Part shown: positions 25,938-38,967 of the stretch, piece by piece
How positions within the stretch are numbered: position 1 is the stretch's first letter
How the letters are laid out: every line of letters begins with the position of its first letter
Origin: Escherichia coli
Lineage (GTDB): Bacteria; Pseudomonadota; Gammaproteobacteria; Enterobacterales; Enterobacteriaceae
Length of the DNA stretch: 64,000 nucleotides
NCBI RefSeq assembly: GCF_001677475.2
Contig: NZ_CP015229.1
Reading direction: 5' to 3' (one strand)
Notes under the pieces: model-generated
What the model was told of the DNA's origin: nothing
Database searches by the model: none
The model's input: the letters and a program-made list of their open reading frames with translations, nothing else
Program-made: the position numbers and the translations under genes

Positions 25938-26588
25938 TCAGAAAATGCGCTCCTGATGCACCCATACCGCTGCTTCCACGCGAGACTTGAGCTTCATTTT
26001 CTTCAGCATGTGCTTGACGTGCACTTTTACTGTGCTTTCGGTGATGTCCAGGCGGCGGGCAATCATCTTGTTCGGCAAACCCTGGGCAATCAGCTTGAGA
26101 ATATCGCGCTCGCGTGGGGTTAACTGGTTAACATCGCGTTCAGTAGTGGCACGGTTAGCGCGCAAGCTGGCGGCCAGAACAGGCGTTAATGCTTCGCTTA
26201 ATACCATTTCGCCAGCAGCTGCCTGATGTAACGCTTTCAGCAGATCTTCCGGTTCCATATCTTTTAACAGATAGCCATCCGCGCCGCGTTTCAGTGCGGT
26301 GACCACATCTTCTTCATGGTTAGAAACGCTGAATACCACAATGCGCCCGGAGAGGGACTTTTCGCGCAGTTTATCCAGCGTTTCCAGACCGTTCATGCCG
26401 GGCATATTGAGATCTAACAGGATCAGATCGGGATCAAGAGATTCCGCCAGTTCAATACCCTGTTCGCCATTACTCGCTTCGCCAACCACGGTGATATCTG
26501 GTGCCATACTGATAAGCTGTTTTACGCCAGTTCGCAGCATCGGGTGATCGTCGATCAGCAGGATAGTAGCCGGTTCCTGATTACTCAT
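25938..26588 (-). CDS. narL: nitrate/nitrite response regulator NarL
   Basis: ORF 25938..26702; start trimmed to [19 protein letters not shown]..., 216 aa; REC + LuxR HTH; AAGGAG RBS. Confidence 0.95.
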
Positions 26589-28377
26589 GGGTATCTCCTT
26601 GGACGTCTGTGAAAGTTTTTTCGGGAATAAAGGTGACCACCACTTCGGTGCCACCTGATTCACGACGGCGGACGCGGCAATCGCCTCGTAAACTTTGCGC
26701 ACGGTCGCGCATTATTATCATGCCGTAGTGATTGCTGCGGATGGCATTTTCAGGCACGCCGCAGCCGTTATCCTGGACGGTCAGTTTGACCTGATTATCG
26801 TTTTGCGCCACCGTCACCACGACCTCACTCGCTTGCGAATGCTTGAGGGCGTTACTTAATGCCTCACGGGCAATTTGCAACAAGTGGATTGCCTGATGCG
26901 AAGGCACCAGACGAGGCGGCAATTGATAATCCAGCTTCACCGGGAAGCCAAATTTGGCGCTGTACTCTTCGCAACTCGCCTCCAGCGCCGGACGTAATCC
27001 AGGCTCGGTGAGCTGCAAACGGAATGTGGTGAGCAATTCACGCAACTGCGCCCAGGATGCATTCAGTTCGTTACGGATCTGACTTAACAGTTCGCGGCTG
27101 CTTTCTGGCAGCGCATCGCCCTGCATCTGTAAACAACTCACCTGCATCTTCATGCAAGAGAGAGATTGGGCAATAGAATCATGCAGTTCGCGCGCAATGG
27201 TGGCACGCTCTTCCATCACGATCAACTGTTGCTGACGTTCCTGATGGCGATCCAACGCCAGCGTGGCGGTGAGTTGTTCAACCAGGGTATCCACCAGTTG
27301 TTGTTGATCATGGCTAAGATGACGCCCCTGCGGCAGGGTCGCCAGCAAAATACCGTACTGCGTATGAGAGTCAGCCAGCCGCCACTTCAGGGTCGTGCCG
27401 CGATCACCAACGGGTAATACGCCGCGCGGGCAGAGCTGGCAGCCTTTATCATCACAAGTCATATCTGGCTGGCAGGTAAACTCCTGATGATTCTCTTCAT
27501 CATCAGTGTCATACACCCGCAGTTCGATATCACGTAGGAGGGTTAAATTCTGTAAGCCGTTGAGTACAGGTGACAGGCGTTCACACAGCGGGGCGCGGGA
27601 ATGCAAACGGCGGTTAGCCTGCCATAAAAAAGAGAGGATCTGATTTTTATGCTCCAGCCCGGCCGTTTTCTCCTGAACCCGCTGCTCAAGTACGGCATAA
27701 CTTTCGGCCAGTTCTGCAGACATATTGTTCAACGCAGTTCCAAGCATCGCCATTTCGTTGCGCCCGCTGATGTTCGCGCGTTGGGTAAAATCGCGATGGC
27801 TGACGGCACTCGCCATTACCAGCAGTTGCCGCCACGGTTGTAGCAGTCGCGCCCGCAACCAGATAATAGTGAACACCAGTAAAAGTGCCATAAATACCGC
27901 CATTACCCGATGGACCAGTACCACTGTCTCAATACGCATTTCCGTGGTGCGGTCAAAACCAGATACCAGCTGATCAAGCCCGGCAACAAACTGGCTGACA
28001 TCCGCTGACACCGTTTCGCGGTTTTGTGCACGCATTAGTGCAGGGATCAGTTCATTACGCCAGTAATCTTGTAAACCCTGTAATTGCGCCAGTTGTCCGT
28101 CTCGTTCTGCTGCTCGGGTTAACTCGGCGCTAAATGCTGTTTGTTCCATCTCTTTAATTAAGGGCTTGTCTTTCTCGCTTAATGGCACTGCTGCCAACAG
28201 ACGGTAACTTTGCATGCGCAGCGATCCCGCTTTGTTGATCGCATGGGCGCTGCCCTGAACGCCTTGCACCAGCCAGCCAGAAACCGCCATCCCTGCTAGT
28301 CCAATAGCAGTAGAAAGCAACACAATAAGCGCAACCTGATTAACCAGGGTGAGCGGAGAGAGACAACGTTTAAGCAT
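26581..28377 (-). CDS. narX: nitrate/nitrite sensor histidine kinase NarX
   Basis: 598 aa; two TM, HAMP, HisKA_3 (ELHDSIAQ), HATPase; overlaps narL by 8 nt. Confidence 0.95.
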
Positions 28378-28642
28378 GCAAACCTCTTCCTTCAGGCTTT
28401 AAATGAGCAATAACCTTAATGAATGTGACGATACATTCTGGAATGGCAGTATTCTCGGCTATTGGCTGAAGTATACCCATACCCGGAAAGAGTTACTCCT
28501 TATTTGCCGTGTGGTTAGTCGCTTTACATCGGTAAGGGTAGGGATTTTACAGCACCGTGAAAAATCTCATAATTTTTATGAAATCACTGTACTCACTATG
28601 GGTAATGATAAATATCAATGATAGATAAAGTTATCTTATCGT

Positions 28643-28656
28643 TTGATTTACATCAA
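28643..28656 (+). promoter_or_regulatory. FNR box TTGAT-TTAC-ATCAA in narK promoter
   Basis: Perfect match to TTGAT-N4-ATCAA, about 60 nt upstream of narK start. Confidence 0.65.
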
Positions 28657-28715
28657 ATTGCCTTTAGCTACAGACACTAAGGTGGCAGACATCGAAACGA
28701 GTATCAGAGGTGTCT

Positions 28716-30107
28716 ATGAGTCACTCATCTGCCCCCGAAAGGGCTACTGGAGCTGTCATTACAGATTGGCGACCGGAAGATCCTGCGTTCTGGCAACAAC
28801 GCGGTCAACGTATTGCCAGCCGCAACCTGTGGATTTCCGTTCCCTGTCTGCTGCTGGCGTTTTGCGTATGGATGTTGTTCAGCGCTGTTGCGGTGAACTT
28901 ACCGAAAGTCGGTTTTAATTTTACGACCGATCAGCTATTTATGTTGACTGCGCTGCCTTCGGTTTCTGGCGCGTTATTACGTGTTCCATACTCCTTTATG
29001 GTTCCTATCTTCGGTGGTCGTCGCTGGACGGCGTTCAGCACCGGTATTCTGATTATTCCTTGCGTCTGGCTGGGTTTTGCCGTGCAGGATACCTCCACGC
29101 CTTATAGCGTCTTCATCATCATCTCTCTGCTGTGCGGCTTTGCTGGCGCGAACTTCGCCTCCAGTATGGCAAACATCAGCTTCTTCTTTCCGAAACAGAA
29201 GCAGGGTGGCGCTCTGGGCCTGAATGGTGGTCTGGGCAACATGGGCGTCAGCGTCATGCAGTTGGTTGCTCCGCTGGTGGTATCACTGTCGATTTTCGCA
29301 GTATTTGGTAGCCAGGGCGTCAAACAGCCGGATGGGAGTGAGCTGTATCTGGCGAATGCGTCCTGGGTATGGGTGCCGTTCCTTGCCATCTTCACCATTG
29401 CGGCGTGGTTTGGCATGAACGATCTTGCTACCTCGAAAGCCTCCATCAAGGAGCAGTTGCCGGTACTCAAACGGGGTCATCTGTGGATTATGAGCCTGCT
29501 GTATCTGGCAACCTTCGGTTCCTTCATCGGCTTCTCCGCAGGCTTTGCGATGCTGTCAAAAACGCAGTTCCCGGATGTTCAGATTCTGCAATACGCTTTC
29601 TTCGGGCCGTTTATTGGTGCGCTGGCGCGTTCTGCAGGTGGTGCATTATCTGACCGTCTTGGCGGAACTCGTGTCACGCTGGTGAACTTTATTCTGATGG
29701 CAATTTTCAGCGGCCTGCTGTTCCTGACCTTACCGACTGACGGGCAGGGCGGAAGCTTCATGGCGTTCTTCGCGGTCTTCCTGGCGCTGTTCCTGACAGC
29801 TGGGCTGGGTAGTGGTTCCACTTTCCAGATGATTTCCGTGATCTTCCGTAAACTGACAATGGATCGCGTGAAAGCAGAAGGGGGTTCTGACGAACGTGCG
29901 ATGCGTGAAGCGGCAACCGACACGGCGGCGGCGCTGGGTTTCATCTCTGCGATTGGCGCGATTGGTGGCTTCTTTATCCCGAAAGCGTTCGGTAGCTCGC
30001 TGGCATTAACGGGTTCGCCAGTCGGCGCAATGAAAGTATTTTTGATTTTTTATATCGCCTGCGTAGTGATTACCTGGGCGGTATATGGTCGGCATTCTAA
30101 AAAATAA
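28716..30107 (+). CDS. narK: nitrate/nitrite antiporter NarK (MFS)
   Basis: ORF 28710..30107; ATG at 28716 gives MSHSSAPERATGAVITDWRPEDPAFW..., 463 aa. Confidence 0.95.
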   Translation: MSHSSAPERATGAVITDWRPEDPAFWQQRGQRIASRNLWISVPCLLLAFCVWMLFSAVAVNLPKVGFNFTTDQLFMLTALPSVSGALLRVPYSFMVPIFGGRRWTAFSTGILIIPCVWLGFAVQDTSTPYSVFIIISLLCGFAGANFASSMANISFFFPKQKQGGALGLNGGLGNMGVSVMQLVAPLVVSLSIFAVFGSQGVKQPDGSELYLANASWVWVPFLAIFTIAAWFGMNDLATSKASIKEQLPVLKRGHLWIMSLLYLATFGSFIGFSAGFAMLSKTQFPDVQILQYAFFGPFIGALARSAGGALSDRLGGTRVTLVNFILMAIFSGLLFLTLPTDGQGGSFMAFFAVFLALFLTAGLGSGSTFQMISVIFRKLTMDRVKAEGGSDERAMREAATDTAAALGFISAIGAIGGFFIPKAFGSSLALTGSPVGAMKVFLIFYIACVVITWAVYGRHSKK

Positions 30108-30130
30108 ATCTTAATATTTGATTATCCTTT

Positions 30131-30157
30131 GCGCGGCATGATGTCGCGCTTTTTTTA
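30131..30157 (+). terminator. rho-independent terminator after narK (GCGCG stem + TTTTTTT)
   Basis: Hairpin and U-run 25-50 nt after narK stop. Confidence 0.75.
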
Positions 30158-30231
30158 TACGTCATTTAGTTACAACATACTAATGTTATATGGTTTATTT
30201 CGCCGGATTTCATTAAGAGCCATTAATATGT

Positions 30232-30261
30232 TACCCATGGGGAATACTCCTTAATACCCAT
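30232..30261 (+). promoter_or_regulatory. cluster of NarL heptamers (TACCCAT, TACTCCT, TACCCAT) upstream of narG
   Basis: Three TACYYMT-like heptamers about 240-270 nt upstream of narG start. Confidence 0.5.
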
Positions 30262-30394
30262 CTGCATAAAAATCTTAATAGTTTAAATAACTACAAGTAT
30301 AAAACGTCTTAATTTACAGTCTGTTATGTTGTGGCTGTTAATTATCCTAAAGGGGTACCTTAGGAATTTACTTTATTTTTCATCCCCATCACTC

Positions 30395-30408
30395 TTGATC
30401 GTTATCAA
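30395..30408 (+). promoter_or_regulatory. FNR box TTGAT-CGTT-ATCAA of narG promoter
   Basis: Perfect FNR consensus about 95 nt upstream of narG ATG. Confidence 0.7.
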
Positions 30409-30499
30409 TTCCCACGCTGTTTCAGAGCGTTACCTTGCCCTTAAACATTAGCAATGTCGATTTATCAGAGGGCCGACAGGCTCCCACAGGAGAAAACCG

Positions 30500-33400
30500 A
30501 TGAGTAAATTCCTGGACCGGTTTCGCTACTTCAAACAGAAGGGTGAAACCTTTGCCGATGGGCATGGCCAGCTTCTCAATACCAACCGTGACTGGGAGGA
30601 TGGATATCGCCAGCGTTGGCAGCATGACAAAATCGTCCGCTCTACCCACGGGGTAAACTGCACCGGCTCCTGCAGCTGGAAAATCTACGTCAAAAACGGT
30701 CTGGTCACCTGGGAAACCCAGCAGACTGACTATCCGCGTACTCGCCCGGACCTGCCAAACCATGAACCTCGCGGCTGCCCGCGCGGTGCCAGCTACTCCT
30801 GGTATCTTTACAGTGCCAACCGCCTGAAATACCCGATGATGCGCAAACGCCTGATGAAAATGTGGCGTGAAGCGAAGGCGCTGCATAGCGATCCGGTTGA
30901 GGCATGGGCTTCTATCATTGAAGACGCCGATAAAGCGAAAAGCTTTAAGCAGGCGCGTGGACGCGGTGGTTTTGTTCGTTCTTCCTGGCAGGAAGTGAAC
31001 GAACTGATCGCCGCATCTAACGTTTACACCATCAAAAACTACGGCCCGGACCGTGTCGCTGGTTTCTCGCCAATTCCGGCAATGTCGATGGTTTCTTACG
31101 CATCGGGTGCGCGCTATCTCTCGCTGATTGGCGGTACTTGCTTAAGCTTCTACGACTGGTACTGCGACCTGCCTCCTGCGTCTCCGCAAACCTGGGGCGA
31201 GCAAACTGACGTACCGGAATCCGCTGACTGGTACAACTCCAGCTACATCATCGCCTGGGGTTCAAACGTGCCGCAGACGCGTACCCCGGATGCTCACTTC
31301 TTTACTGAAGTGCGTTACAAAGGCACCAAAACTGTTGCCGTCACACCAGACTACGCTGAAATCGCCAAACTGTGCGATCTGTGGCTGGCACCGAAACAGG
31401 GCACCGATGCGGCAATGGCGCTGGCGATGGGCCACGTAATGCTGCGTGAATTCCACCTCGACAACCCAAGCCAGTATTTCACCGACTATGTTCGTCGCTA
31501 CACCGACATGCCGATGCTGGTGATGCTGGAAGAGCGCGACGGTTACTACGCCGCGGGTCGTATGCTGCGCGCTGCCGATCTGGTGGATGCGCTGGGCCAG
31601 GAAAACAATCCGGAATGGAAAACTGTCGCCTTTAATACCAATGGCGAAATGGTTGCGCCGAACGGTTCTATTGGCTTCCGCTGGGGCGAGAAGGGCAAAT
31701 GGAATCTTGAGCAGCGCGATGGCAAAACTGGCGAAGAAACCGAGCTGCAACTGAGCCTGCTGGGTAGCCAGGATGAGATTGCTGAGGTGGGCTTCCCGTA
31801 CTTTGGTGGCGACGGTACTGAACACTTCAACAAAGTGGAACTGGAAAACGTGCTGCTGCACAAGCTGCCGGTGAAACGCCTGCAACTGGCTGATGGCAGC
31901 ACCGCACTGGTGACCACCGTTTATGATCTGACGCTGGCAAACTACGGTCTGGAACGTGGCCTGAACGACGTTAACTGTGCAACCAGCTATGACGATGTGA
32001 AAGCTTACACCCCAGCCTGGGCTGAGCAGATCACCGGCGTTTCTCGCAGCCAGATTATTCGCATCGCCCGTGAATTTGCCGATAACGCTGATAAAACGCA
32101 CGGTCGTTCGATGATTATCGTCGGTGCGGGGCTGAACCACTGGTATCACCTGGACATGAACTATCGCGGTCTGATCAACATGCTGATTTTCTGCGGCTGT
32201 GTCGGTCAGAGCGGGGGCGGCTGGGCGCACTATGTAGGTCAGGAAAAACTGCGTCCGCAAACCGGCTGGCAGCCACTGGCGTTTGCCCTTGACTGGCAGC
32301 GTCCGGCGCGTCACATGAACAGCACTTCTTATTTCTATAACCACTCCAGCCAGTGGCGTTATGAAACCGTGACTGCGGAAGAACTGCTGTCGCCGATGGC
32401 GGATAAATCCCGTTATACCGGACACCTGATCGACTTTAACGTCCGTGCAGAACGCATGGGCTGGCTGCCGTCTGCACCGCAGTTAGGCACTAACCCGCTG
32501 ACTATTGCTGGCGAAGCAGAAAAAGCGGGCATGAATCCGGTGGACTATACGGTGAAATCCCTGAAAGAGGGTTCAATCCGTTTTGCTGCGGAACAGCCGG
32601 AAAACGGCAAAAACCATCCGCGTAACCTGTTTATCTGGCGTTCTAACCTGCTGGGCTCTTCCGGTAAAGGTCATGAGTTTATGCTCAAGTACCTGCTGGG
32701 GACGGAACACGGTATCCAGGGTAAAGATCTGGGGCAGCAGGGCGGCGTGAAGCCGGAAGAAGTGGACTGGCAGGACAATGGTCTGGAAGGCAAGCTGGAT
32801 CTGGTGGTGACGCTGGACTTCCGTCTGTCGAGCACCTGTCTCTACTCCGACATCATTTTGCCGACGGCGACCTGGTACGAAAAAGACGACATGAATACTT
32901 CGGATATGCATCCGTTTATTCACCCGCTGTCTGCGGCGGTCGATCCGGCCTGGGAAGCGAAAAGCGACTGGGAAATCTACAAAGCTATCGCGAAGAAATT
33001 CTCCGAAGTGTGCGTTGGTCATCTGGGTAAAGAAACCGACATCGTTACGCTGCCAATTCAGCACGACTCCGCCGCTGAACTGGCGCAGCCGCTGGATGTG
33101 AAAGACTGGAAAAAAGGCGAATGCGATCTGATCCCAGGTAAAACCGCACCGCATATTATGGTGGTTGAGCGTGATTATCCGGCCACTTACGAACGCTTTA
33201 CCTCAATCGGCCCGCTGATGGAGAAAATCGGCAACGGCGGTAAAGGGATTGCCTGGAACACCCAGAGCGAAATGGATCTGCTGCGTAAGCTCAACTACAC
33301 CAAGGCTGAAGGTCCAGCGAAAGGCCAGCCGATGCTCAACACCGCAATTGATGCGGCAGAGATGATCCTGACGCTGGCACCGGAAACCAATGGTCAGGTA

Positions 33401-34243
33401 GCTGTAAAAGCCTGGGCTGCCCTGAGCGAGTTTACCGGCCGTGACCATACGCATCTGGCGCTGAATAAAGAAGACGAGAAGATTCGCTTCCGCGATATTC
33501 AGGCACAGCCGCGCAAAATTATCTCCAGCCCGACCTGGTCTGGTCTGGAAGATGAACACGTTTCTTACAACGCCGGTTACACCAACGTTCACGAGCTGAT
33601 CCCGTGGCGTACGCTCTCTGGTCGTCAGCAGCTGTATCAGGATCATCAGTGGATGCGTGATTTCGGTGAAAGCCTGCTGGTTTATCGTCCGCCGATCGAT
33701 ACCCGTTCGGTGAAAGAAGTGATGGGCCAGAAATCCAACGGTAACCCGGAAAAAGCCCTGAACTTCCTGACGCCACACCAGAAGTGGGGTATCCACTCCA
33801 CTTACAGCGACAACCTGCTGATGCTGACTTTAGGTCGCGGTGGGCCTGTGGTCTGGCTGAGCGAAGCCGATGCTAAAGATTTGGGTATTGCCGACAACGA
33901 CTGGATTGAAGTCTTCAACAGCAACGGTGCGTTGACTGCCCGTGCGGTTGTCAGCCAGCGTGTTCCGGCAGGGATGACCATGATGTACCACGCGCAGGAA
34001 CGTATCGTTAACCTGCCTGGTTCGGAAATCACGCAGCAGCGTGGGGGGATTCATAACTCGGTCACCCGTATCACGCCGAAACCGACGCATATGATCGGTG
34101 GCTATGCCCATCTGGCATACGGCTTTAACTACTACGGCACCGTAGGTTCTAACCGCGATGAGTTTGTTGTGGTGCGTAAGATGAAGAACATTGACTGGTT
34201 AGATGGCGAAGGCAATGACCAGGTACAGGAGAGCGTAAAATGA
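30500..34243 (+). CDS. narG: respiratory nitrate reductase A, alpha subunit
   Basis: 1247 aa, MSKFLDRFRYFKQKGETFADGHGQ..., molybdopterin oxidoreductase. Confidence 0.97.
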   Translation: MSKFLDRFRYFKQKGETFADGHGQLLNTNRDWEDGYRQRWQHDKIVRSTHGVNCTGSCSWKIYVKNGLVTWETQQTDYPRTRPDLPNHEPRGCPRGASYSWYLYSANRLKYPMMRKRLMKMWREAKALHSDPVEAWASIIEDADKAKSFKQARGRGGFVRSSWQEVNELIAASNVYTIKNYGPDRVAGFSPIPAMSMVSYASGARYLSLIGGTCLSFYDWYCDLPPASPQTWGEQTDVPESADWYNSSYIIAWGSNVPQTRTPDAHFFTEVRYKGTKTVAVTPDYAEIAKLCDLWLAPKQGTDAAMALAMGHVMLREFHLDNPSQYFTDYVRRYTDMPMLVMLEERDGYYAAGRMLRAADLVDALGQENNPEWKTVAFNTNGEMVAPNGSIGFRWGEKGKWNLEQRDGKTGEETELQLSLLGSQDEIAEVGFPYFGGDGTEHFNKVELENVLLHKLPVKRLQLADGSTALVTTVYDLTLANYGLERGLNDVNCATSYDDVKAYTPAWAEQITGVSRSQIIRIAREFADNADKTHGRSMIIVGAGLNHWYHLDMNYRGLINMLIFCGCVGQSGGGWAHYVGQEKLRPQTGWQPLAFALDWQRPARHMNSTSYFYNHSSQWRYETVTAEELLSPMADKSRYTGHLIDFNVRAERMGWLPSAPQLGTNPLTIAGEAEKAGMNPVDYTVKSLKEGSIRFAAEQPENGKNHPRNLFIWRSNLLGSSGKGHEFMLKYLLGTEHGIQGKDLGQQGGVKPEEVDWQDNGLEGKLDLVVTLDFRLSSTCLYSDIILPTATWYEKDDMNTSDMHPFIHPLSAAVDPAWEAKSDWEIYKAIAKKFSEVCVGHLGKETDIVTLPIQHDSAAELAQPLDVKDWKKGECDLIPGKTAPHIMVVERDYPATYERFTSIGPLMEKIGNGGKGIAWNTQSEMDLLRKLNYTKAEGPAKGQPMLNTAIDAAEMILTLAPETNGQVAVKAWAALSEFTGRDHTHLALNKEDEKIRFRDIQAQPRKIISSPTWSGLEDEHVSYNAGYTNVHELIPWRTLSGRQQLYQDHQWMRDFGESLLVYRPPIDTRSVKEVMGQKSNGNPEKALNFLTPHQKWGIHSTYSDNLLMLTLGRGGPVVWLSEADAKDLGIADNDWIEVFNSNGALTARAVVSQRVPAGMTMMYHAQERIVNLPGSEITQQRGGIHNSVTRITPKPTHMIGGYAHLAYGFNYYGTVGSNRDEFVVVRKMKNIDWLDGEGNDQVQESVK

Positions 34244-35778
34244 AAATTCGTTCACAAGTCGGCATGGTGCTGAATCTCGATAAGTGCATCGGCTGCCACA
34301 CCTGTTCAGTTACCTGTAAAAACGTCTGGACCAGCCGCGAAGGCGTGGAATACGCGTGGTTCAACAACGTGGAAACCAAGCCGGGCCAGGGCTTCCCTAC
34401 TGACTGGGAAAACCAGGAAAAATACAAAGGTGGTTGGATCCGTAAAATCAACGGCAAACTGCAACCGCGCATGGGTAACCGAGCCATGCTGCTGGGTAAA
34501 ATCTTCGCTAACCCGCATCTGCCGGGGATCGACGATTATTACGAGCCGTTCGATTTTGATTATCAGAACCTGCATACCGCGCCGGAAGGCAGCAAATCGC
34601 AGCCGATTGCCCGTCCGCGTTCGCTGATTACTGGCGAACGGATGGCGAAAATCGAAAAAGGGCCGAACTGGGAAGATGACCTGGGCGGCGAGTTTGACAA
34701 ACTGGCGAAAGACAAGAACTTCGACAACATCCAGAAGGCGATGTATAGCCAGTTCGAAAACACCTTCATGATGTATTTGCCGCGTCTGTGCGAACACTGC
34801 CTCAACCCGGCATGTGTGGCGACCTGTCCGAGCGGGGCTATCTACAAACGTGAAGAAGATGGCATCGTACTGATCGATCAGGATAAATGCCGTGGCTGGC
34901 GTATGTGCATCACCGGATGCCCGTACAAAAAAATCTACTTCAACTGGAAGAGCGGTAAATCTGAGAAGTGCATCTTCTGCTATCCGCGTATTGAAGCCGG
35001 TCAGCCGACGGTGTGCTCAGAAACCTGTGTGGGTCGTATCCGTTATCTTGGCGTGCTGTTGTACGATGCCGACGCTATTGAACGTGCAGCCAGCACCGAG
35101 AACGAGAAAGATCTCTACCAGCGTCAGCTGGAAGTGTTCCTCGACCCGAACGATCCGAAAGTCATCGAGCAAGCGATTAAAGACGGTATTCCGCTGAGCG
35201 TTATTGAAGCCGCACAACAGTCGCCGGTGTATAAAATGGCGATGGAATGGAAACTGGCGCTGCCGCTGCATCCGGAATATCGCACATTGCCGATGGTCTG
35301 GTACGTGCCGCCTCTGTCACCGATTCAGTCTGCGGCAGACGCGGGCGAACTGGGCAACAACGGCATTTTGCCAGACGTAGAAAGCCTGCGTATCCCGGTT
35401 CAGTACCTGGCGAATCTGCTGACCGCCGGTGATACCCAACCGGTACTGCTCGCGTTGAAACGTATGCTGGCAATGCGTCATTACAAACGAGCTGAAACCG
35501 TTGACGGTAAAGTTGATACCCGTGCGCTGGAAGAGGTCGGCCTGACCGAAGCCCAGGCACAGGAGATGTACCGTTATCTGGCAATTGCAAACTACGAAGA
35601 TCGCTTTGTGGTGCCGAGTAGCCATCGTGAACTGGCGCGGGAAGCCTTCCCGGAGAAAAATGGTTGTGGCTTTACCTTTGGTGACGGCTGCCACGGTTCA
35701 GATACCAAATTCAATCTGTTCAACAGCCGTCGTATCGATGCCATCGACGTGACCAGTAAAACGGAGCCGCATCCATGA
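34240..35778 (+). CDS. narH: respiratory nitrate reductase A, beta subunit (Fe-S)
   Basis: 512 aa with Cys clusters (CIGCHTCSVTC...); ATGA overlap with narG. Confidence 0.97.
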   Translation: MKIRSQVGMVLNLDKCIGCHTCSVTCKNVWTSREGVEYAWFNNVETKPGQGFPTDWENQEKYKGGWIRKINGKLQPRMGNRAMLLGKIFANPHLPGIDDYYEPFDFDYQNLHTAPEGSKSQPIARPRSLITGERMAKIEKGPNWEDDLGGEFDKLAKDKNFDNIQKAMYSQFENTFMMYLPRLCEHCLNPACVATCPSGAIYKREEDGIVLIDQDKCRGWRMCITGCPYKKIYFNWKSGKSEKCIFCYPRIEAGQPTVCSETCVGRIRYLGVLLYDADAIERAASTENEKDLYQRQLEVFLDPNDPKVIEQAIKDGIPLSVIEAAQQSPVYKMAMEWKLALPLHPEYRTLPMVWYVPPLSPIQSAADAGELGNNGILPDVESLRIPVQYLANLLTAGDTQPVLLALKRMLAMRHYKRAETVDGKVDTRALEEVGLTEAQAQEMYRYLAIANYEDRFVVPSSHRELAREAFPEKNGCGFTFGDGCHGSDTKFNLFNSRRIDAIDVTSKTEPHP

Positions 35779-36485
35779 TCGAACTCGTGATTGTATCGCG
35801 TCTCCTTGAATATCCGGATGCTGCCTTATGGCAGCATCAACAAGAGATGTTTGAGGCGATTGCCGCGTCGGAAAATCTGTCAAAAGAGGATGCCCATGCG
35901 CTGGGCATTTTCCTGCGCGATTTAACGGCGATGGATCCGCTCGATGCTCAGGCCCAGTACAGCGAACTGTTCGATCGTGGTCGCGCCACGTCGCTGTTGC
36001 TGTTTGAGCACGTTCACGGGGAATCCCGCGATCGCGGTCAGGCGATGGTGGACCTGCTGGCACAGTACGAGCAGCACGGTTTGCAGTTAAACAGCCGCGA
36101 ATTGCCGGACCACCTGCCGCTGTATCTGGAGTATCTGGCGCAGCTGCCGCAAAGCGAAGCCGTGGAGGGTTTGAAAGATATTGCGCCGATTCTGGCATTG
36201 CTGAGCGCGCGTCTGCAACAGCGTGAAAGCCGTTATGCCGTGCTGTTTGATCTGCTGCTGAAACTGGCCAATACCGCTATCGACAGTGACAAAGTGGCGG
36301 AAAAAATTGCCGACGAAGCGCGCGACGATACGCCGCAGGCGCTGGATGCTGTCTGGGAAGAAGAGCAGGTTAAATTCTTTGCTGACAAAGGCTGCGGTGA
36401 TTCAGCAATCACTGCTCATCAGCGTCGCTTTGCCGGTGCCGTCGCGCCGCAATATCTGAATATCACCACCGGAGGACAGCACTAA
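35775..36485 (+). CDS. narJ: nitrate reductase assembly chaperone NarJ
   Basis: 236 aa; overlaps narH stop. Confidence 0.95.
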
Positions 36486-37162
36486 TGCAATTCCTGAATA
36501 TGTTCTTCTTTGATATCTACCCGTACATAGCCGGGGCGGTCTTCCTGATTGGTAGCTGGCTGCGTTATGACTACGGGCAGTACACCTGGCGCGCGGCGTC
36601 CAGCCAGATGCTGGATCGCAAAGGGATGAACCTGGCGTCGAACCTGTTCCATATCGGTATTCTGGGGATTTTTGTCGGTCACTTCTTCGGTATGCTGACG
36701 CCGCACTGGATGTATGAAGCCTGGCTGCCGATTGAAGTGAAACAGAAAATGGCGATGTTTGCTGGTGGTGCCAGCGGCGTGCTGTGTCTGATTGGCGGCG
36801 TGCTGTTGCTGAAACGTCGTCTGTTCAGCCCACGCGTGCGTGCAACGACTACCGGAGCGGATATCCTGATCCTGTCTCTGCTGGTTATCCAGTGCGCTCT
36901 GGGCTTGCTGACCATTCCGTTCTCCGCCCAGCATATGGACGGTAGCGAGATGATGAAACTGGTTGGCTGGGCGCAGTCGGTAGTGACCTTCCACGGTGGC
37001 GCTTCTCAACACCTTGATGGTGTGGCGTTTATCTTCCGTCTGCACCTGGTGCTGGGGATGACGTTATTCTTGCTGTTCCCGTTCTCACGTCTGGTGCACA
37101 TCTGGAGCGTACCGGTGGAGTATCTGACACGTAAGTATCAGCTGGTGCGCGCTCGTCACTAA
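36485..37162 (+). CDS. narI: respiratory nitrate reductase A, gamma subunit (cytochrome b)
   Basis: 225 aa, five TM helices; 1-nt overlap with narJ. Confidence 0.95.
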
Positions 37163-37346: not shown

Positions 37347-37880
37347 TGGTGGTGGGGGAAGGATTACTCAGCGCTGCGTGCTTCACCCTTCGGGTCGTTG
37401 CCTGCGGCAACGCTCTCTCGCTGGCGCTCGAGTCGAACCTTGGTCGAAGCTTCTCATCCTTCCCCGCTTGGGCAGAATATTTAATTACGGATTCGTTTGA
37501 GAGTTCAGGGACTTTTGAAAGTTATGGTGGTGGGGGAAGGATTACTCAGCGCTGCGCGCTTCGCCCTTCGGGTCGTTGCCTGCGGCAACGCTCTCTCGCT
37601 GGCGCTCGAGTCGAACCTTGGTCGAAGCTTCTCATCCTTCCCCGCTTGGGCAGAATATTTAATTACGGATTCGTTTGAGAGCTCAGGGACTTTTGAAAGT
37701 GATGGTGGTGGGGGAAGGATTACTCAGCGCTGCGTGCTTCACCCTTCGGGTCGTTGCCTGCGGCAACGCTCTCTCGCTGGCGCTCGAGTCGAACCTTGGT
37801 CGAAGCTTCTCATCCTTCCCCGCTTGGGCAGAATATTTAATTACGGATTCGTTTGAGAGTTCAGGGACTTTTGAAAGTGA
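37347..37880 (-). repeat. three tandem 178-bp repeats in the distal tyrT operon (rtT/tpr region), each beginning with 19 nt identical to the tRNA-Tyr 3' end
   Basis: Units at 37347, 37525, 37703; next period at 37881 is the tRNA gene; partial degenerate copy at about 37321-37346. Confidence 0.9.
37546..37635 (-). CDS. tpr: Tpr-like Arg-rich 29-aa peptide ([29 protein letters not shown]) in the middle repeat
   Basis: Hand-translated minus-strand ORF; the same frame in the two flanking repeats stops after 24 aa. Confidence 0.5.
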
Positions 37881-37965
<85 letters not shown>

Positions 37966-38124: not shown

Positions 38125-38967
38125 TTAAAGAATAATCGTCCGATTACCGTAAACAAAGACGCGCTGCGCCAGTACTTTGTAGAGCGCGCGACTTAAGACG
38201 TTTTTCTCGACGTCACGACCTGCGCGCATCATATCTTCAGCTGTGTAGGTATGATCGACATGAATAACGTCCTGCATGATGATTGGGCCTTCGTCCAGAT
38301 TGTCATTCACATAGTGAGCGGTTGCGCCAATAATCTTCACGCCACGTTCATAGGCCTGGTGATAAGGACGTGCGCCGATAAACGCTGGCAGGAATGAATG
38401 GTGAATATTGATGATTTTATTCGGGAAGCGCGCCACAAATTCCGGCGTTAATACCCGCATATATTTCGCCAGCACCACGTAGTCAGGTTGATAAGCATCA
38501 ATGGCGTCCGCCATCTTTTGATCGTGCTCGTTGCGGCTTAACCCTTCATGGCTTACCAGCTCAAACGGAATATCAAAACGCTCAACCAGAGAACGTAAAG
38601 TATCGTGGTTACCAATAACTGCCGCGATTTCGACATCCAGGCCGCCGTAATTGGCTTTCATCAACAAATCGCCAAGGCAATGCGCTTCTTTCGTGACCAG
38701 AATCACTATCCGGCGACGACCGGCAGGATTCAGCTCACGCACGGAGCCTTCTGGCAATGCGCTATCGAGATCCGCCAGCAGGGTGGAATCATTAAAAATC
38801 CCTTCCAGTTCCGTGCGCATAAAAAAGCGCCCGGTACGGTGATCAACAAATTCATTGTTCTGCACGATATTTAACTCGTGCTTGTAGCAAATATTGGTAA
38901 TACGTGCGATCAGACCTTTTTGGTCCGGACAAATAGTACGCAGAACTTTACGTTGGAGTGAATGCAT
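38125..38967 (-). CDS. purU: formyltetrahydrofolate deformylase
   Basis: 280 aa, ACT domain + formyltransferase domain. Confidence 0.95.
   Translation of the reverse strand: MHSLQRKVLRTICPDQKGLIARITNICYKHELNIVQNNEFVDHRTGRFFMRTELEGIFNDSTLLADLDSALPEGSVRELNPAGRRRIVILVTKEAHCLGDLLMKANYGGLDVEIAAVIGNHDTLRSLVERFDIPFELVSHEGLSRNEHDQKMADAIDAYQPDYVVLAKYMRVLTPEFVARFPNKIINIHHSFLPAFIGARPYHQAYERGVKIIGATAHYVNDNLDEGPIIMQDVIHVDHTYTAEDMMRAGRDVEKNVLSRALYKVLAQRVFVYGNRTIIL

Follow-up and report, generated by a model that had tools for sequence, protein, structure and literature searches.

The narG promoter is among the most thoroughly characterised of bacterial promoters. In E. coli K-12, narGp has a class II FNR site at -41.5, an IHF site at about -125, and phosphorylated NarL (NarL-P) in the -89 and -195 regions. 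The FNR site of narGHJI is single, ChIP-bound and activating (Myers et al., PMC3688515, Table 1), and narK likewise has a ChIP-bound FNR site at -41.5 (PMC3688515). TACYYMT is the consensus of NarL and NarP (PMC4886647), and at narG the NarL-P footprints comprise one of high affinity with its centre in the -89 region and another of lower affinity with its centre in the -195 region (PMC4549865). Both regions are required together with FNR and IHF, and the NarL output domain fails to activate where binding in the -195 region is weak, so that occupancy of both regions is needed (PMC4549865). IHF is needed at the narG promoter (PMC4549865, PMC3688515), a narG fragment from -223 to +70 carries multiple NarL sites and an IHF box (Hothersall et al., PMC9314961), and the promoter has been described as without any 7-2-7 site (PMC4549865).

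We analysed a 64,000-nucleotide stretch of DNA, called the window throughout, whose 64 kb were collinear with the E. coli chromosome (ychF/pth, narXL, narK, narGHJI, tyrT, purU, hns, adhE, opp and kch). Judged by its sequence, the window is a chromosome segment of the Escherichia/Shigella type with narL-narX, narK and narGHJI. By tblastn, the seven nar proteins (NarL, NarX, NarK, NarG, NarH, NarJ and NarI) were intact, full length and 98.7-100% identical to those of K-12. The narXL genes are divergent and lie upstream of narK. On the minus strand, narL (25938-26588), by annotation transfer the response regulator that binds the heptamers, was 100% identical to K-12 NarL over 216 of 216 amino acids, and narX (26581-28377), the nitrate sensor kinase, was 99.8% identical over 598 amino acids. 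On the plus strand, narK (28716-30107), the nitrate/nitrite antiporter of 463 amino acids, was 99.6% identical, and the narGHJI operon (30500-37162) gave full-length tblastn matches 98.7-99.8% identical to K-12, with narG at 30500-34243 (99.8%), narH at 34240-35778 (99.2%), narJ at 35775-36485 (98.7%) and narI at 36485-37162 (99.6%), all on the plus strand. The Pfam families of the narGHJI proteins were read from identical public contigs. Of the regulator genes, narX and narL are intact beside narK; fnr, ihfA and ihfB lie outside the window.

The spacer between narK and narG, 30108-30499, is almost certainly the narGHJI control region and would be functionally the same promoter as that of K-12, co-dependent on FNR, IHF and NarL. 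The promoter is real, canonical in form and already known. Sequences, positions, identity to K-12, excess over chance and conservation were obtained in the present analysis, and binding and co-dependence are taken from the literature on K-12.

FNR, NarL and IHF sites upstream of narG and narK

A perfect FNR box (TTGAT-N4-ATCAA), TTGATCGTTATCAA, was located upstream of narG at 30395-30408 on the plus strand by direct reading and pattern search. Perfect matches to this palindrome occurred 3 times in the 64-kb window against 0.14 expected, a number that 0 of 100 shuffles reached, and a perfect box arose in 0.04% of trials when the 392-bp narK-narG spacer was shuffled locally. The promoter register was set by assigning the centre of the box, 30401.5, to the published -41.5; adding 41.5 to this centre puts the narG transcription start (+1) at a predicted 30443 on the plus strand, with a 57-nt leader. 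A weak -10 hexamer, TACCTT (30431-30436, plus strand), was placed from FNR at -41.5 and is invariant in Escherichia. No -35 match was found at the narG promoter, and a sigma-70 consensus scan returned no stand-alone promoter at narG; since this is a class II activator-dependent promoter, neither result is evidence against it. An Rfam scan of the narG control region returned no structured RNA. The sequence from the FNR box downstream to the ATG was identical to that of K-12, and the box itself, a TTGAT-N4-ATCAA at -41.5 in class II position relative to the predicted start, is that of an E. coli-type narGHJI promoter. The third perfect FNR palindrome of the window, TTGATAAGCATCAA (38488-38501), falls within purU, in coding sequence of the minus strand where there is no promoter, and is probably incidental.

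Further upstream, direct reading and a consensus scan gave three NarL heptamers on the plus strand, TACCCAT at -208 (30232-30238), TACTCCT at -195 (30245-30251) and TACCCAT at -185 (30255-30261), all of which fall inside the published low-affinity NarL-P footprint of the -195 region (PMC4549865). The consensus scan also gave the high-affinity heptamer TACCCCT at -89 (30351-30357, minus strand), in the other published footprint region (PMC4549865). A weak heptamer-like sequence with 2 mismatches, TTCCTAA at -80 (30360-30366, minus strand), is 2 bp from the -89 heptamer and shares its orientation; it is a candidate site, read from the sequence. Between the two NarL regions lies the IHF core, TTACAGTCTGTTA (30314-30326, plus strand), centred at about -123. 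This core is identical to that of K-12 and has 3 mismatches to the consensus WATCAANNNNTTR; the consensus match in Escherichia being poor, its assignment rests on the K-12 experiments and on cross-species alignment. Heptamers in the -195 region, a heptamer in the -89 region and, between them, an IHF site with a weak consensus match are the elements of an E. coli-type narGHJI promoter.

Single TACYYMT heptamers numbered 46 in the 64-kb window against 32.6 expected. Three on the same strand within 30 bp were met in 0 of 1000 whole-window dinucleotide shuffles, and the 392-bp narK-narG spacer held 4 heptamers against 0.57 expected (P = 0.003). The initial annotation had reported three TACYYMT heptamers at 30232-30261, a perfect FNR box at 30395-30408 and another at the narK promoter, 28643-28656. 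Direct reading and pattern search reproduced each of these coordinates exactly, all three heptamers being on the plus strand. Its broader claim, a textbook layout of remote NarL sites and a proximal FNR box, is upheld by the gene context, the identity with K-12 and the published -41.5 and -195 regions; it was incomplete, omitting the -89 NarL site and IHF.

The narK promoter, 1.7 kb upstream of that of narG, has a parallel layout, with positions counted from a start at 28691 predicted from its FNR box. In E. coli this promoter is described with NarL and IHF in addition to FNR at -41.5. Its primary FNR box, TTGATTTACATCAA (28643-28656, plus strand; pattern search), is perfect and lies in class II position at -41.5. 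A consensus scan gave two distal NarL heptamers on the plus strand, TACCCAT at -214 (28474-28480) and TACTCCT at -194 (28494-28500), and a proximal one on the minus strand, TACCCAT at -90 (28598-28604). The narX-narK spacer held 3 heptamers against 0.51 expected (P = 0.014). Unlike narG, narK has an extra FNR-like site, ATGATAAATATCAA, with 1 mismatch and a centre at -79.5 (28605-28618, plus strand; consensus scan), and two distal heptamers instead of three, and its promoter drives a monocistronic transporter gene plus the NarS sRNA.

A terminator scan and mapping of the K-12 narS annotation identified the 3' end of narK as an intrinsic terminator and short-form NarS region (30096-30156, plus strand). 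This segment, whose terminator has its stem at 30131-30149 followed by a T-run, forms the upstream limit of the narG control region, and the ends of the NarS sRNA in it are predicted ones. In K-12, ~123 bp are inserted directly behind the narK stop, within the sRNA annotated as narS, and the unusual length of K-12 NarS has been ascribed to an insertion (PMC7038943). The window and strain HH97 are without the insertion, and both should therefore have a short-form NarS, comparable to the 63-nt NarS-S of Salmonella.

Comparison with K-12 and other Escherichia sequences

When the spacer between narK and narG was aligned over 387 bp, which begin shortly past the narK stop and run up to the narG ATG, the window and K-12 showed zero indels and four substitutions, with every motif identical. 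All four substitutions are outside the motifs: 30159 (window A, K-12 G), 30296 at -147 (A/G), 30330 at -113 (T/G) and 30358 at -85 (C/T), the last of which adjoins the -89 heptamer. A check of the spacing against a characterised narG promoter, proposed with the initial annotation, found it unshifted, there being no indel relative to K-12 from the narK terminator to the narG ATG. Altered promoter spacing had been suspected from the spacer lengths, 392 bp in the window and 515 bp in K-12, and was rejected, the ~123-bp insertion being specific to K-12; this difference is irrelevant to the promoter because the insertion lies upstream of all regulatory sites.

Third-codon positions of the seven nar genes differed from K-12 by 7.0% overall, and the control regions differed at 4 of 387 positions (narK-narG) and 2 of 338 (narX-narK). 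Purifying selection on the nar control regions is visible in these figures. By gene, third-codon divergence was 3.3-3.7% in narL, narX and narK, 9-10% in narG, narH and narJ, and 5.3% in narI, a jump that points to a mosaic produced by recombination, with its breakpoint close to the narK/narG boundary.

The 221-bp narG core is polymorphic in E. coli, about a third of complete genomes being just 90-95% identical to the window. Eight Escherichia sequences (the window, K-12, a close relative, O157:H7, strain C5, ST131, a divergent "E. coli" representative and E. albertii) were aligned over 306 columns with zero gaps, and the narG FNR box was invariant in all eight. Among the seven E. coli rows, the distal heptamer block had 2 variable columns of 30, the segment from -181 to -102 (30262-30341) 29 of 80 (36%), the proximal NarL region 5 of 25 and the segment from -76 to +57 2 of 133; the FNR box and the -10 contained no variable column. 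In these eight sequences the segment from -181 to -102 is thus constrained in length and free in sequence, and a spacer of fixed length with free substitution is what a looping or phasing mechanism predicts. Three more distant Escherichia-type assemblies (loci L088, L089 and L091; 95.9% DNA identity over narK-narI) have a NarH with the same amino-acid sequence as that of the window. In these assemblies the 392-bp spacer carries 68 or 69 substitutions and the -208 heptamer is lost (CATCCAT), while -195, -185, -89, the FNR box and the -10 are kept.

Two of the differences from K-12, -147 G>A and -85 T>C, were specific to the window, being absent from seven other aligned E. coli (six plus HH97). 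It is unlikely that they have retuned the promoter in this lineage by altering the affinity for NarL-P or IHF and hence nitrate induction. Position -85 does fall in the published high-affinity footprint region (PMC4549865), with the -89 heptamer on one side and the -80 heptamer on the other, and locus L092, which has the same NarH as the window, has a T at 30358. However, neither change touches a consensus position; ST131 varies at -84 to -82, so the dinucleotide spacer tolerates change; and the identical spacer is present in a public isolate (locus L090), so this is a normal circulating allele. A promoter functionally the same as that of K-12 is the preferred reading.

The isolate in question, GCA_031299685.2, shows a single mismatch to the window over 7.8 kb, and its narK-narG spacer is identical. 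Among 5,426 complete E. coli genomes, none exceeded 98.2% identity to the window over 24 kb. An altered or synthetic origin of the window was considered and rejected, as this near-identical public NCBI assembly exists; because of the match, the window is, on sequence grounds, a natural sequence of a less-sampled Escherichia/Shigella-type lineage. Elsewhere in the window, the tyrT locus (37347-37965) has three tandem RtT repeats (37347-37478, 37525-37656 and 37703-37834) and a single tRNA-Tyr gene (37884-37965), where E. coli SC418 carries two copies of tRNA-Tyr. The rdlD antitoxin RNA (Rfam RF01813) was found in two copies, 20615-20680 and 21150-21215, a pair that fits the type I toxin-antitoxin repeats (ldr/rdl) arranged in tandem between kdsA and chaA.

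Positional conservation of the sites across genera

Orthologues of narG were scanned in one genome per species, and the FNR box of each promoter served as its anchor. The genera were Escherichia, Citrobacter, Pseudocitrobacter, Pluralibacter, Enterobacter, Pseudescherichia, Superficieibacter, Klebsiella, Hafnia, Rahnella, Serratia, Pantoea, Pectobacterium and a Vibrio. The FNR box was perfect in 22 of 24 narG promoters and had one mismatch in the other two. The -195 heptamer is deeply conserved, with a mean of 0.21 mismatches against a background of 2.69; in all 24 promoters, that of Vibrio included, a copy with no more than 1 mismatch lay within 2 bp of this position. Across the same 24 promoters, mean mismatches were 0.96 for the -89 element (background 3.0), 1.25 for the -185 heptamer (background 2.70), which is partly conserved, as TAATACC, and 1.58 for the IHF core at about -123 (background 4.01). 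A perfect WATCAANNNNTTR stands at the aligned IHF position in Pectobacterium, Pantoea and Citrobacter FP75. The -208 heptamer had a mean of 2.50 mismatches against a background of 2.69 and matched the consensus in only five of the 24, all of them E. coli sequences. The positions of the FNR box, the -195 heptamer, the IHF core and the -89 element were kept within about 2 bp in 23 related promoters, out to Vibrio.

A near-perfect 7-2-7 repeat was found at -98/-89 in several genera, as TACCCCTttGGGGGTA in Enterobacteriaceae RIT691 and TACCTCTttGGGGGTA in Rahnella. Pantoea too has a near-perfect 7-2-7 NarL/NarP repeat at about -98/-89, of which Escherichia has the right half only. These sequences hint at NarP input to narG in RIT691, Rahnella and Pantoea. 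At the narG promoter of the window there was no 7-2-7 inverted repeat (TACYYMT-NN-AKRRGTA); the best match, TTATCCT-AA-AGGGGTA at 30342-30357, has 2 mismatches, both in the left half, at core positions A2 and C3. This left half, the degenerate heptamer TTATCCT at -98 (30342-30348, plus strand), may be read as the decayed half of an ancestral 7-2-7 site, and its degeneracy in Escherichia agrees with the description of K-12 narG as without such sites (PMC4549865). It is very unlikely that the -98/-89 pair also admits NarP here, which would give a response to NarQ/NarP besides NarX/NarL: the pair has the 7-2-7 geometry, and other genera are near-perfect at this place, but its mismatches fall on core positions and the published description speaks against any such site at narG.

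The pattern across genera points to an apparent turnover of sites in Escherichia, in which the left half of the 7-2-7 repeat was lost and the -208 heptamer was gained, the latter recent and E. coli-specific. A fuller history is possible, if somewhat doubtful. In it, a true 7-2-7 site at -98/-89 would have accompanied the -195/-185 pair in the narG promoter of the enterobacterial ancestor; in Escherichia the left half would have decayed (TACCYCT to TTATCCT), and E. coli would have gained -208. Were this so, the promoter may have shifted from NarL/NarP-permissive to NarL-only control with a stronger dependence on IHF looping, and the window-specific substitutions at -85 and -147 could be further fine-tuning.

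That the distal heptamers are incidental matches in an AT-rich spacer, with nitrate control exerted through -89 and FNR alone, is hardly credible: TACYYMT is short, degenerate and more frequent in the window than expected (46 against 32.6), the -208 heptamer is at background outside E. coli (2.50 against 2.69) and the published -195 footprint is the lower-affinity one (PMC4549865), but no triplet within 30 bp arose in 1000 shuffles, -195 is kept in all 24 promoters out to Vibrio (within 2 bp, at most 1 mismatch), the distal block varies within E. coli at 2 of 30 columns against 36% of the adjacent spacer, and the footprints, with the failure to activate where -195 binding is weak, indicate that both regions must be occupied (PMC4549865). 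Conservation and the published footprints exclude a chance origin for -195 and -185; for -208 outside E. coli such an origin would be a fair reading.

Proposed mechanism and comparison with described promoters

Taken with the K-12 literature, the sites suggest how the switch would work. Under anaerobiosis, the FNR dimer, carrying its [4Fe-4S] cluster, would bind the perfect box at -41.5 and recruit RNA polymerase in class II fashion. In the presence of nitrate, NarX would be activated and would phosphorylate NarL. NarL-P would then occupy the -89 region, where its affinity is high, and would bind cooperatively to the -208/-195/-185 block, where it is lower. A bend introduced into the DNA by IHF at about -123 would bring the distal NarL-P block beside the proximal complex, and full induction of narG would require FNR, IHF and NarL-P together. 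We infer this looping geometry. By analogy with K-12, the remote heptamers are expected to work only jointly with the -89 site and the intervening IHF bend.

In this strain the oxygen- and nitrate-responsive switch of the main respiratory nitrate reductase is complete and canonical, a result of little import beyond annotation. In the inflamed gut, nitrate respiration gives Enterobacteriaceae an advantage, and the narG switch is relevant to growth there. What is modestly new is comparative: the -195, IHF, -89 and FNR sites are positionally fixed as far as Vibrio, which is a refinement and no discovery.

The paralogous narZYWV operon, whose NarZ has about 86% identity to NarG in the first 300 amino acids, was also returned by the orthologue scan. 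No FNR box with at most 1 mismatch was present within 520 bp upstream at four narZ loci, which is consistent with the reported absence of FNR activation at narZ (PMC8139620). The 7-2-7 promoters, such as those of nirB, nrfA, fdnG, yeaR and ogt, have the TACYYMT consensus and the regulator in common with narG. They carry one inverted pair close to the core promoter, whereas at narG the heptamers are single or direct, one group lies ~200 bp upstream and IHF bending is needed. The closest described system is K-12 narGp itself. The window has in common with it the flanking genes, the FNR box, the -10, the -89 heptamer, the IHF core, the three distal heptamers and their spacing, and differs from it in the four substitutions outside the motifs and in the ~123-bp insertion after the narK stop, which K-12 alone carries.
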